A stretch of 64,000 nucleotides of DNA. Source: Flavobacteriales bacterium (GTDB taxonomy: Bacteria; Bacteroidota; Bacteroidia; Flavobacteriales_F; PHOS-HE28). Position 1 is the stretch's first letter. Each line of letters starts with the position of its first letter. Location: contig CP064979.1 in NCBI GenBank assembly GCA_016699575.1, positions 1,933,796 to 1,997,795 on the forward strand. The letters run 5' to 3'. Below, piece by piece: positions 44,862-47,682 of the stretch. Both the position numbers and the translations under genes were made by a program. The notes below the pieces were generated by a model. That model was not told the origin of the DNA. It did no database searches and saw only the letters and a program-made list of their open reading frames with translations.

Positions 44862-46385
44862 ATGTCCGACCAATTGAGCGATCAGGAGCTGGTGCGCCGC
44901 GAAGCCTTGCAGAAACTTCGTGCGCTCGGCATCGAACCCTTCCCCGCTGCGGAATATCCCGTGAGCCACACGGCTGCGCAGGCGAAACAACTGCTGCCCG
45001 CGCCACAGGAAGGTGTTGAAGCGCCCAAACCGGAAGTGTGCCTGGCGGGCCGCATCATGAGCGTTCGCGTCATGGGCAAAGCATCGTTCGCGGTGCTGCG
45101 CGATCACAGCGGCGACCAGCAGATCTACATCGCTCGCGATGAAGTATCGCCCGGCGACAACAAGACGATGTACGATGAGGTATGGCGGCACCTGCTCCAC
45201 CTCGGTGATTTCATCGGTGTGAAGGGCTTCATGTTCCGCACGCGAACGGGCGAGATTACCGTGCATGTGAAGGAACTCACCGTGCTGGGCAAGGCCCTGC
45301 GCCCGCTGCCGGTGGTGAAGACCGATGACCAAGGCAATGTGCACGACGCGTTCACCGATCCCGAGCAGCGCTACCGCATGCGCTACGTGGACCTGAACGT
45401 GAACCCCGGGGTGAAGGAGACCTTCCTCAAGCGCTCGCGCATCATCACGGCCATGCGCGATCACATGACAGGTGCAGGTTACCACGAAGTGGATACGCCC
45501 GTGCTGCAGCCCATTCCCGGCGGCGCTGCGGCGCGTCCGTTCATCACGCACCACAATGCGTTGGACATGCCGCTCTACTTGCGCATCGCCAACGAGCTCT
45601 ACCTGAAGCGCCTCATCGTGGGCGGGTTCGAAGGTGTGTTCGAGTTCAGCCGCAACTTCCGCAACGAGGGCATGGACCGCACGCACAACCCGGAGTTCAC
45701 CATCATGGAACTATACGTGGCGTGGAAGGACTACCGCTGGATGATGAATTTCATGGAGAGCATGCTCGAACGAGTTTGCATTGCTGCGAACGGGACGAGC
45801 ACCACGACCTTCCAAGGCAACGAGCTGCAGTTCAAGGCGCCGTTCAAGCGGATCACCATGTGCGGCTCCATCAAGGAGAAGACCGGAGCCGATGTGCTGG
45901 AACTGGACGAGGCCGCGTTGCGTTCATTGTGCGCCAAGCACCATATCCACGTGGAGCCGAGCATGGGCAAGGGCAAATTGATCGATGAGCTTTTCAGTGC
46001 GCTCGTGCAACCCGAGCTGATACAGCCGACGTTCGTGTGCGACTTCCCGGTGGAGATGAGCCCGCTTTGCAAGAAGCACCGTGATGATGAGCGCCTCACC
46101 GAGCGCTTCGAGCTTTTCGTGAACGGCTTCGAGCTGGCCAACGCCTACAGCGAACTGAACGACCCGATCGATCAGCGCGAACGCTTCGAGGCGCAACTGG
46201 AACTACAGCAACGCGGCGACGACGAGGCCATGTTCATCGACCAGGATTTCCTCCGTGCCCTGGAGTACGGTATGCCGCCCACCAGCGGCGTTGGCATCGG
46301 CGTGGACCGCTTGGTGATGCTCATGACCAACAACCCGGCGATACAAGAGGTGCTGCTGTTCCCGCAAATGAGGCCGGAACGATAG
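44862..46385 (+). CDS. lysS: Lysine--tRNA ligase (class II)
   Basis: 507 aa. It has an OB-fold N-terminal region, the class II motifs [15 protein letters not shown] and GGxGIGVDRL, and the C-terminus [10 protein letters not shown]. Confidence 0.95.
46249..46381 (+). repeat. Direct repeat, left copy (functional 3' end of lysS)
   Basis: 133 bp, identical at 126 of 133 positions to 47537-47669 by manual alignment. Confidence 0.9.
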
Positions 46386-47536
46386 TGTCGCCTCCAAAAT
46401 CGCCTGATAATCAATATGTTAACACCTGTTCGTTGATTTCGGGATTTCCTCGAACAACTTATCAACAACGTTCATCTACATTTGCGCGCAACTGACCCCC
46501 CCACGCTTCCCATCAGAACAGCGCACCAGGGGGGGCTTTCATTTGATATCCAGGCAATGGCCACCATTGTTGTCTCAGACCCATACGAGCACCTCTCTCT
46601 CGATCGACAGGTGAGGATGCTCCAAGACCGAGGCATGGTAGTTCCTGACCTGGAGTGGGCGAAAGTTCGACTGGCCCACATCGGCTATTGTCGGCTCAGG
46701 CCATACTGGTACACTTGGTACGAACCCGATGGCGCTGCGCTAGAAAGCGACAAGATCGTAAAGCGTTTCAGGCCCGACGCAGACTTCAGGAGCGTCATCG
46801 ACACCTATCGCTTCGACCGGGAATTAAGGCTCCTGGTGTTCGCCGAGATCGAGAGGATAGAGACATCGATCAAGACCACGGTCATCGATGTGTTTTCTTC
46901 TGCGCTGGACGCCAATTGGTACGAGCACCGGGAGCACTTCACGGATCCAGTGCGCCACGCTGAGTTGTTCATAGCGATTGCCAAATCAGTCGATCGCAGG
47001 AGACAGAAGGAAGACGGTTTCGTTGTAAGGGCCAAGGGTAGTCGCTATCCACCGGCATGGGAGGCATTGCAAGACCTTTCTCTTGGGCAGCTTTCGAAGA
47101 TGTACTATAACATGAAACCCGGCCCTCTGAAGAAGAGGGTTGCGGAAGTCTATGGGCTGGACGACTCTGTGCTAGCCTCTTGGCTCAATACGCTCACGGA
47201 GGTTCGGAACACATGTGCCCACCATTCAAGGCTCTGGAACAGGGAGATTCTTACAGCTCCAGTAATACCCAAGGTCGTTGATTCGCAACGTTGGATTACG
47301 ACCCCTGACAAGCGATCAGCCACTAGGGTGTACTTCTCTCTGGTCATGATGAAATACTTGCTCTTAGCGTTCATGCCAGACACCGGCCTCACGAAACGCA
47401 TTGCGGGATTACTTGAAGCCTATCCAAAAATTCCCAGAGGGCGCATGGCTTGGCCGGACTCATGGAAAGAGGAGCCAGTTTGGAGGCTTGGAGGAACGGA
47501 GAATGAGTGATCGTGGAGTAGCTCGAAGTACCTTGC
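46382..47536. mobile_element. ~1.15 kb inserted islet carrying an Abi_2 gene, bounded by the lysS 3'-end duplication (no integrase present)
   Basis: Flanked by 133-bp direct repeats. The G+C of the first ~170 bp and of the Abi gene is visibly lower than in lysS, judged by eye. Confidence 0.55.
46557..47510 (+). CDS. Abi_2-family abortive-infection protein (AbiD/AbiF-like)
   Basis: [16 protein letters not shown]...YCRLRPYWY...[24 protein letters not shown]...[17 protein letters not shown] are remembered Abi_2 blocks. ATG 46557. Confidence 0.8.
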
Positions 47537-47682
47537 TCCTCCGTGCCCTGGAATACGGCATGCCGCCCACCAGCGGCGTTGGCATCGGCGTGGACCGCTT
47601 GGTGATGTTGATGACGAACAACCCGGCGATCCAAGAAGTGCTGCTGTTCCCGCAAATGAGGCCGGAACGGTCGAATTCGTGA
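47537..47682 (+). pseudogene. Displaced remnant of the lysS 3' end (right copy of the direct repeat)
   Basis: Encodes [47 protein letters not shown], identical to the last 42 residues of LysS. All 7 nucleotide differences are synonymous. No upstream lysS sequence is present. Confidence 0.85.

Follow-up and report, generated by a model that had tools for sequence, protein, structure and literature searches.

A 64,000-nt stretch of the chromosome of an uncultured Flavobacteriales bacterium (contig CP064979.1; the whole stretch is called the window below) carries a small phage-defense cassette inserted at the 3' end of lysS, the gene for lysyl-tRNA synthetase. The cassette contains the gene for an Abi_2 (AbiD/AbiF-type) abortive-infection toxin, preceded by a predicted structured RNA. 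It is bracketed by two closely similar copies of the lysS terminus, one of which is of horizontal origin and the other of which is the native end of the gene, now displaced downstream. The account favored here, at a probability of about 0.5, is that an AbiF-type module entered the end of lysS by a site-specific route and now resides there as a non-autonomous element resembling a cis-mobilizable element (CIME).

The first-pass annotation of this DNA had reported that the last 133 nt of lysS (46249-46381) recur at 47537-47669 with 126 of 133 positions identical, and both the coordinates and the identity were confirmed. The homology runs on for two more bases, to 46383 and 47671, and takes in one further difference (CGA/CGG). 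Across these 135 positions the copies differ at eight sites, and all eight differences are synonymous in the lysS frame. This is the only long repeat of the segment, with no third copy within the window. The gene encodes a class II lysyl-tRNA synthetase of 507 amino acids with an OB anticodon domain, and the protein is 98% identical to P0121 and P0365, its closest matches in a large protein collection, which have 510 residues and end in RPERSNS. Two other LysS records differ, namely P0364, from a 138-kb contig, which ends in RPERPNS, and P0361, which has 502 amino acids. The upstream repeat, copy 1, closes the protein with ...QMRPER and lacks the SNS tail of these relatives, such that the replacement end falls three codons short of the native stop. 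Copy 2 reads through to ...RPERSNS before its stop codon, and its last 15 nt, stop codon included (CGGTCGAATTCGTGA), are identical to the lysS ends of two related contigs, L161 and L330. Given that the tail and the stop of copy 2 match the lysS ends of relatives, copy 2 is the displaced native end of the gene. A mechanically called open reading frame (ORF) of 93 amino acids (window 47401-47682, plus strand) starts out of frame within the 3' end of the Abi gene and runs on into copy 2, where it follows the frame of lysS; copy 2 could be translated by no other route, but the ORF is probably meaningless.

The differences between the copies argue for import. Had copy 2 decayed neutrally in place, the probability that 8 of 8 differences would be synonymous is 0.0006-0.0015. 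Therefore, essentially all of the divergence between the two copies built up while each served as a functional lysS end, before they came to lie at one locus, and one of them was imported. Copy 1 has derived synonymous states (GGT, CTC, ATA and CGA) that are absent from L330, L161 and a third related contig, L332, and it would be the replacement end, which arrived with the insert and now completes lysS. A different history, in which the lysS end was duplicated in tandem in situ and passed on by vertical descent, and the Abi gene came to lie between the copies by chance or at a later time, would explain three derived bases (46253 C, 46259 C and 46346 A) that are common to both copies and absent from L330, L332, L161 and L165. 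However, such a history is very improbable in view of the wholly synonymous differences, the lack of indels in copy 2 and the foreign composition of the insert. It is also at odds with the relatives, given that L330, its companion contig L331, L332 and L161 all lack the 133-nt duplication. A relative sharing the duplication at native composition, which the first-pass annotation had set against its own proposal, was not seen among these contigs.

An unoccupied version of the locus is found in L330, a contig of 128 kb, and in L331. Both have the gene order of the window on both flanks (sdhC-PGI-DAO-lysS-pgk-GNAT), and L330 aligns with window positions 44828-46381 at 92.0% and with 47653-50646 at 84.6% nucleotide identity. 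These contigs, which are ~8% diverged from the window, were found by way of the downstream oxidoreductase protein, DAO, for which P0242 was the match. Their lysS encodes 510 amino acids ending in RPERSNS, and they have neither the Abi gene nor the 133-nt repeat. Therefore, the insertion is specific to the lineage of the window, and the adjacency of lysS and DAO, which is also seen in L332, is native. The search for empty sites that the first-pass annotation had proposed was thus successful in part; the insert is missing from L330 and L331, but their site is not pristine, since it has a 29-nt duplication of the lysS terminus. Two other sets of candidate empty sites were rejected. L161 shares the pgk side of the locus and has a LysS 98% identical to that of the window, but the gene downstream of its lysS is a HEAT/peptidyl-prolyl isomerase (PPIase) gene, in a rearranged genome. 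The other set consisted of 160 further Bacteroidota lysS loci, in which LysS is at most 85% identical in amino acid sequence, synteny is lacking, and no locus has the Abi gene or DAO as a neighbor.

The interval between the two 133-nt copies (46382-47536; 1,155 bp) has one credible gene and is foreign in composition. The G+C content is 0.53 for the insert and 0.485 for its leader versus 0.60 for the window, and G+C at third codon positions is 0.63 for the Abi gene versus 0.81 for lysS. This composition and the syntenic relative without the insert bear out the earlier claim that the DNA is foreign. The cassette is laid out as a left spacer of 93 nt, a promoter box, an RNA hairpin, the Abi ORF and a right spacer of 26 nt. 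Because only 93 nt precede the promoter box and 26 nt follow the stop codon, the cassette amounts to a promoter, an RNA and a toxin, and no pseudogene debris was found in either spacer. A second copy of the cassette is absent from the window, as is any tRNA gene, and the insert DNA has no match among plasmids. An exact search of viral contigs for the left junction gave 0 matches, and a scan of viral contigs with the C-terminus of LysS found full-length lysS genes only, with no attP-like fragments.

The single gene of the cassette had been assigned to Abi_2 from the sequence alone, and the assignment withstood comparison with profiles. The Pfam Abi_2 model (PF07751) matches with an E value of 4.3e-44 and 151.5 bits against a cut-off of 25.6, over profile positions 3-184 of 184, and the PADLOC AbiD model matches with an E value of 1.9e-52. 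Both the N-termini of homologs and the position of the hairpin (46496-46535) place the start at ATG 46557 rather than at TTG 46482. The domain is intact, as is the motif R217-N-T-C-A-H222, of the R-x4-6-H type, which lies inside a 13-residue block that is invariant in 13 aligned homologs and is presumably the HEPN catalytic motif. The nearest homologs are 38-40% identical to the protein of the window. A protein at least 90% identical (P0368) is encoded on a Logan contig of 1,238 nt from another sequencing run, where it was called from the TTG equivalent to 46482. By tblastn, the Abi protein also matches ORF37 of the Clostridioides phage phiC2, with 24% identity over 93% of the query and an E value of 1e-24. 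This ORF37 is reported to be 99.88% identical to AbiFCd, a toxin that has been tested (PMC12373285).

The region upstream of the Abi gene had been described as a lower-G+C leader. Its G+C content is indeed low (0.485 versus 0.60), but it is not a mere leader, in that its sequence predicts a structured RNA that is conserved and akin to the abiF motif. The Rfam abiF model (RF03085) matches with 23.7 bits, with model positions 1-37 at 46497-46536, a full-length match, and the predicted hairpin has a minimum free energy of -18.6 kcal/mol. The core pattern of the hairpin occurs once in the window versus 0.01 expected. A hairpin with the same core and covarying outer stems lies ahead of every close Abi_2 homolog examined. 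The loci of the nearest Abi homologs (P0003, P0004, P0008, P0009, P0013 and P0017) share the layout of the window: a -7 box, ~11-13 nt, a hairpin with the core CGCU-UCYC...AGAWC-AGCG, a U-rich tail, and an ATG 20-30 nt farther on. The same -7 box lies at the same distance from the hairpin in L177, L179, L180, L321, L324 and L328, and U-rich tails follow the hairpin in these contigs as well. The box has the form TAnnTTTG, which we take to be the consensus of the Bacteroidota -7 box. All Bacteroidota-type Abi loci examined have one hairpin per locus. At the gathering score, Rfam gave no match for six homologous loci, and the motif was traced by its core pattern instead. Scans for sigma-70 promoters and for terminators were uninformative in this Bacteroidota genome, and a simple terminator scan did not call the U tract at 46536-46544; the tract may be the tail of an intrinsic terminator, in which case a short RNA would be released. 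By analogy with an AbiF system of Clostridioides difficile that is described below, the hairpin RNA is a probable antitoxin and/or attenuator of the Abi toxin.

The hairpin core was also found at 50 loci in a scan of viral contigs, and nearly all of these fold into a hairpin with different outer stems. In an alignment of 28 distinct sequences, the outer stems of 6-9 bp differ and yet remain paired, with 8 of 9 outer pairs doubly changed, although the stem register was chosen by hand for best pairing and the search pattern fixed the inner stem. In a number of viral contigs (L204, L217, L219, L239, L255, L305, L311, L313, L317, L318 and others), the core and covarying stems are present with no Abi_2 gene downstream, and among the ORFs downstream of viral hairpins only 3 of 16 are Abi_2. 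The orphan phage hairpins have as neighbors ORFs for a prohead protease, a lysozyme, a head completion protein, an ATP-grasp protein and an aspartyl protease. Phage-contig hairpins without an Abi gene go unmentioned in the 2025 paper on AbiF, and they hint that such hairpins may serve as RNA decoys against AbiF.

Features of the lysS locus, with window coordinates and the basis for each assignment.
Feature	Position	Strand	Basis
lysS	44862..46385	+	Pfam tRNA-synt_2 1e-90; last 135 nt are repeat copy 1
Repeat copy 1, attL-like functional lysS 3' end	46249..46383	+	Homology stops inside the terminal 29-mer, after AAATGAGGCCGGAACG
Inserted cassette, 1,153 nt	46384..47536	+	Absent from syntenic L330/L331; G+C 0.53 vs 0.60
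-7 promoter box TACATTTG (TAnnTTTG)	46477..46484	+	Read from sequence; 11 nt upstream of hairpin
Predicted abiF-motif variant hairpin	46496..46535	+	C7 / A-CGCU-UCCCAUCAGAAC-AGCG-CACCA / G7
U-rich tract CUUUCAUUU	46536..46544	+	Directly 3' of hairpin; read from sequence
Abi_2 (AbiD/AbiF-type, HEPN) toxin gene, 317 aa	46557..47510	+	Pfam, PADLOC, homolog alignment
Repeat copy 2 with native tail and stop, attR-like fragment	47537..47682	+	15-nt identity to relatives; Pfam tRNA-synt_2 3.7e-16
Terminal 29-mer AAATGAGGCCGGAACGGTCGAATTCGTGA, recurrent breakpoint region of the clade	47654..47682	+	Duplicated in L330, L331, L161
FAD-dependent oxidoreductase (DAO), convergent with lysS, native right flank	47705..48751	-	Pfam DAO 4.7e-31

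The junctions of the relatives converge on the last 29 nt of lysS. In L330, L331 and L161, this 29-mer (AAATGAGACCGGAACGGTCGAATTCGTGA) is followed by a 30-nt spacer and then by a second copy of the 29-mer. The arrangement, with the second 29-mer after the lysS stop (L330:3896-3982 on the minus strand, L331, and L161:5984-6070), has the look of a gene-less CIME remnant, or microCIME. Nothing in the window corresponds to the 30-nt spacer of L330. In L161, the second 29-mer is kept for 13 nt, after which synteny switches to the HEAT/PPIase gene. The LysS of L332 is almost the same as that of L330 but terminates in RPERS, and the match of L332 to the 29-mer breaks off after base 20. For copy 1 of the window, the match ends after bases 16-18. 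Four junction states, all of which break in one 29-mer, are thus found at the lysS ends of the window and of relatives with LysS ~98% identical to that of the window. As a side observation, a 565-nt segment of L332 (2684-3248) with a predicted membrane ORF of 180 amino acids replaces the lysS tail and the spacer up to DAO. No duplication accompanies this segment, and the 180-residue protein has neither a PADLOC match nor a significant Pfam match.

According to the favored account, the module would have entered the 3' terminus of lysS together with its own lysS-like end of 133-135 bp. The imported end (RPER and stop) would complete the essential gene, and the original end (RPERSNS and stop) would have been pushed downstream against DAO as a dead fragment. 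The exchange would be the work of the site-specific recombinase of an element that carries a mimic of its target end, and the crossover point would lie close to the repeat's left edge (TCCTCCGTGCCCTGGA). As judged from the C. difficile AbiF and RCd22 pair, the module would work as a type III toxin-antitoxin system does, with the RNA binding and neutralizing the toxin; upon phage infection the toxin would be freed and the infection aborted. Today the element could be the remnant of a larger island or a mini-element that is served in trans, and the addictive property of a toxin and its antitoxin may hold it in place. Because no recombinase gene is present, the element is non-autonomous and CIME-like. 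A site-specific origin is ranked first given the anatomy, which is like that of the E. coli element e14, the precedent of CIMEs, and the fact that the 3' end of lysS is targeted by integrative and conjugative elements (ICEs). The flanking repeats are att-like in anatomy, and no cognate ICE, integrative and mobilizable element (IME) or integrase was found in the loci searched. The first-pass reading of the locus as an integration scar stands with respect to a replacement 3' end beside a displaced native end and to the defense cargo, but entry may have been either by a recombinase acting in trans or since lost, or by insertion driven by homology.

A number of observations weigh against the favored account. 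Integrase, recombinase, transposase and relaxase families are absent from the ~56 ORFs of the window in a Pfam scan over 64 kb; the earlier statement that no mobility gene is present holds, therefore, for the insert and for the window alike. Neither an intact parent element nor a relative bearing an attP was found among plasmids, phages and viral contigs, and a search of the same collections for a fuller version of the island with an integrase, as the first-pass annotation had advised, came back empty. A duplicated lysS end was found in 0 of the 160 other Bacteroidota lysS loci (80 from genomes and 80 from metagenomes). The junctions of L332, L161 and the L330 scar lie at the very end of lysS, away from the 133-nt repeat's left edge, and these terminal breaks sit less easily with a crossover at the terminus than the e14-type model does. 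Each repeat copy has 13-17 differences from L330, L332 and L161 versus the 8 between the copies. Since the copies are closer to one another than to any sampled relative, either the donor allele was very close or gene conversion has occurred, and homology-driven routes account equally well for this closeness. With respect to the RNA, the RF03085 match of 23.7 bits falls below the gathering score of 37, and the window has one abiF motif and not two as in RCd22.

Insertion driven by homology, without a dedicated recombinase, is a possible if tentative explanation, with two versions considered jointly. In one version, RecA exchange between the flanking repeats of a donor would have released a small circle with the cassette and one lysS fragment, and a single Campbell-type crossover would have brought this circle into a naive lysS and restored the duplication. 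In the other, a linear fragment would have been anchored in lysS and its far end joined illegitimately 133 nt upstream of the gene end, by homology-facilitated illegitimate recombination. Either version is consistent with the lack of a recombinase in 64 kb and with repeats that, at 133 nt and 95% identity, are long enough for RecA to act on. Neither copy has a closer relative than the other copy, which would point to a donor that was a near relative, and a tandem Abi cassette in L183, described below, shows that such repeats recombine. In addition, the differences between the lysS genes of the window and L330, counted per 150 nt along the gene, are 8, 7, 13, 5, 14, 8, 12, 17, 20 and 18. The 3' third is therefore ~2 times as divergent as the 5' part (~5% rising to ~12%), and it may be a recombinant tract that was brought in with the cassette. 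However, homology alone leaves unexplained the first capture of a target-gene end and the clustering of four junction states in one 29-mer, and clean coding duplications made by illegitimate joins on 3 occasions (once in the window and twice in L180) would have to be a coincidence.

The rise in divergence from L330 toward the 3' end of lysS also favors an unlikely but related history, in which the whole structure was built earlier in another strain and imported when ordinary homologous recombination replaced the lysS-DAO region, much as happens with the minimal mobile elements of Neisseria. The window would then be uninformative on the original insertion event. Such an import is further suggested by the DAO protein, which is 76% identical to that of L330 versus 98% for LysS, and by the occurrence of P0368 in another sequencing run. 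However, DAO may simply evolve faster than lysS, and because import is compatible with either model of origin, it is an addition to them and not an alternative.

The cargo, a single gene in ~1.2 kb, is of a size that would suit a transposon, an insertion sequence or an integron cassette, but an insertion of that type is hardly credible. Neither a transposase nor an IntI family was found in the Pfam scans of 64 kb, and the locus has no above-chance terminal inverted repeats or attC-like palindromes; the best arms are 14 nt long with 86% complementarity, and 6 kb of sequence contains 21 such pairs. A 14-nt inverted repeat close to the two ends of the insert, at 46390-46403 and 47474-47487, was considered as a pair of terminal inverted repeats and rejected as a chance occurrence on this count. 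A coding repeat of 133 nt with 5% divergence is, moreover, unlike the target-site duplication of a transposon or insertion sequence.

A parallel arrangement at an unrelated gene is found in contigs L180-L185. The last 70-85 nt of a gene for a histidine kinase of 1,222 amino acids occur three times as direct repeats (L180:5818-8507), with a one-gene cassette encoding 309 amino acids between copies A and B and an Abi cassette between copies B and C. The L180 Abi protein (P0008) is 37% identical to that of the window, and its gene has the same hairpin. The coding differences among the kinase-end copies are all synonymous (CGA/CGG/CGT, GGT/GGC, CTG/CTT, ATA/ATC and GAG/GAA), and each copy has its own tail before the stop (PSA, PSVTTKE and PSVTAPA). 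No integrase lies within 6 kb of the L180 cassettes, and the 309-residue protein has no PADLOC match and no significant Pfam match. The possibility that the repeats are tRNA fragments was rejected, given that ARAGORN found none and that the repeats are the 3' end of the histidine-kinase gene. In L183 (4475-6550), the Abi cassette occurs twice in tandem with 100% identity and a period of 1,158 nt, against a single copy in sister contigs; the tandem has the look of an unequal exchange between the 74-nt repeats on either side (B and C), or of an assembly effect. Flanking repeats are absent at the Abi loci of L177, L321, L324 and L328 and at the viral loci, and direct repeats around the Abi gene of L179 proved to be an intergenic repeat family and not a gene end. 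Because some Abi loci are without a bracket, the bracket is recurrent and not universal.

The bracket in L180 and the very tight packing of the cassette lean slightly toward a small non-autonomous unit over a decayed island. A bolder proposal, which is regarded as doubtful, is that the cassette of the window and the two L180 cassettes belong to an undescribed class of tightly packed, integrase-less, single-gene cassettes with a long coding mimic of a gene 3' end. These would be inserted, stacked and exchanged at gene ends by a recombinase in trans or by host recombination, with AbiF toxin and RNA-antitoxin modules as favored cargo since they resist loss. Such a class, equally doubtful, would amount to an integron-like cassette economy at gene termini.

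Other small segments were seen elsewhere in the window. Two one-gene segments at 41707-42270 and 42769-43434 are absent from L161 and L330, and the corresponding ORFs, at 41699-42238 (179 amino acids) and 42778-43395 (205 amino acids, with a lipoprotein-like signal and a G+C content of ~0.55), have no PADLOC or significant Pfam match. Downstream of the sdh genes are a toxin-antitoxin-like pair of DUF433 and DUF5615 genes (54156-54733) and a solitary ORF for a ParE-family toxin (56167-56472).

The lysS locus provides a clean, dated example of a phage-defense gene installed in an essential gene without harm to it, in a phylum, the Bacteroidota, for which neither scars of this kind nor the targeting of lysS had previously been noted. 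Its significance rests on the unoccupied relative and on the selection test showing that one repeat copy was imported. It would also extend the system of AbiF with an RNA antitoxin to the Bacteroidota, with a predicted single-hairpin variant of the RNA that is missed by the current Rfam model, which is relevant to the annotation of defense systems. A pattern recurs: two unrelated targets have gene-end brackets with synonymous differences only, a single 29-mer is the site of four junction states, and cassettes are stacked. Were a trans-acting recombinase behind the pattern, it would represent a new route of mobility for defense genes.

The closest anatomical likeness is to the cryptic prophage e14 (and phage 21), integrated at the icd 3' end of E. 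coli K-12, in which, as in the window, the element-borne replacement end is proximal and functional and a fragment of the native gene, icdC, lies distally. As measured here, the e14/icd repeat is 165 nt long and 92.7% identical, and 10 of its 12 differences are synonymous, with 2 amino acid changes. Its homology has an abrupt left edge, and the cargo of e14 includes the defense genes lit and mcrA. However, e14 is 15 kb long and encodes intE and xisE, whereas the element of the window has 1.15 kb, one gene and no recombinase, and its replacement end is three codons short of the native stop.

Minimal mobile elements of Neisseria, attributed to Saunders and Snyder in 2002, are reportedly single-gene cassettes at a fixed intergenic site between conserved genes and without mobility genes. 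The four junction states between lysS and DAO resemble them. Unlike the cassette of the window, the Neisseria elements are exchanged by double crossover in flanking sequence, and gene ends are not duplicated in the process.

Streptococcal CIMEs are flanked by att sites, have lost their genes for recombination and transfer, and are 1.2-13 kb long with cargo (PMC7563491). Gene-less microCIMEs are 130-220 bp, and CIMEs commonly occupy housekeeping genes at their 3' ends, often in tandem arrays (PMC7563491). The cassette of the window, the two tandem cassettes of L180 and the 59-nt scar in L330 fit this description, and in the window no gene for recombination, conjugation or mobilization is present, the cassette consisting only of the predicted RNA and the Abi gene. 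In contrast, CIMEs are defined in Firmicutes, where they lie beside ICEs or IMEs, whereas the cassette is in a member of the Bacteroidota, has a coding repeat of 133 nt and a putative att function, and has no partner ICE or IME in view.

The first-pass annotation had supposed that lysS is not a commonly cited integration target, but its use is documented. The 3' end of lysS is the target of tyrosine-integrase ICEs in Streptococcus, of the ICESt3 type (PMC4701971), and lysS is also entered by the VanD islands of Enterococcus and Clostridia (PMC8725431). The target gene is the same as in the window, and insertion of the streptococcal ICEs at its 3' end gives rise to direct repeats there; the flanking repeats reported for streptococcal ICEs are 12-54 bp (PMC4701971). 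However, the ICEs and islands in lysS are large, encode their own integrases, have repeats of 11-17 bp and are found in Firmicutes; the likeness to the window is one of target gene.

For the cargo, the comparison is with AbiFCd. [quoted passage not shown] Both modules have an Abi_2/HEPN toxin preceded by an RNA of the abiF motif, and the predicted hairpin of the window matches the Rfam abiF model end to end. In contrast to RCd22, the window has one hairpin, a Bacteroidota-type sequence variant that scores below the gathering threshold, and the proteins share 24% identity. AbiFCd is located in a prophage lysis module, whereas the module of the window is chromosomal and solitary.

Compared with these systems, what is new here is an empty site defined on two flanks, the selection test, the putative RNA partner, the hot-spot 29-mer and a parallel at a different gene. 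In short, known kinds are joined in one locus, namely a replacement-end scar of the e14 type, a CIME-like element and a module of AbiF with its predicted RNA, and it is the phylum and the setting that are new.

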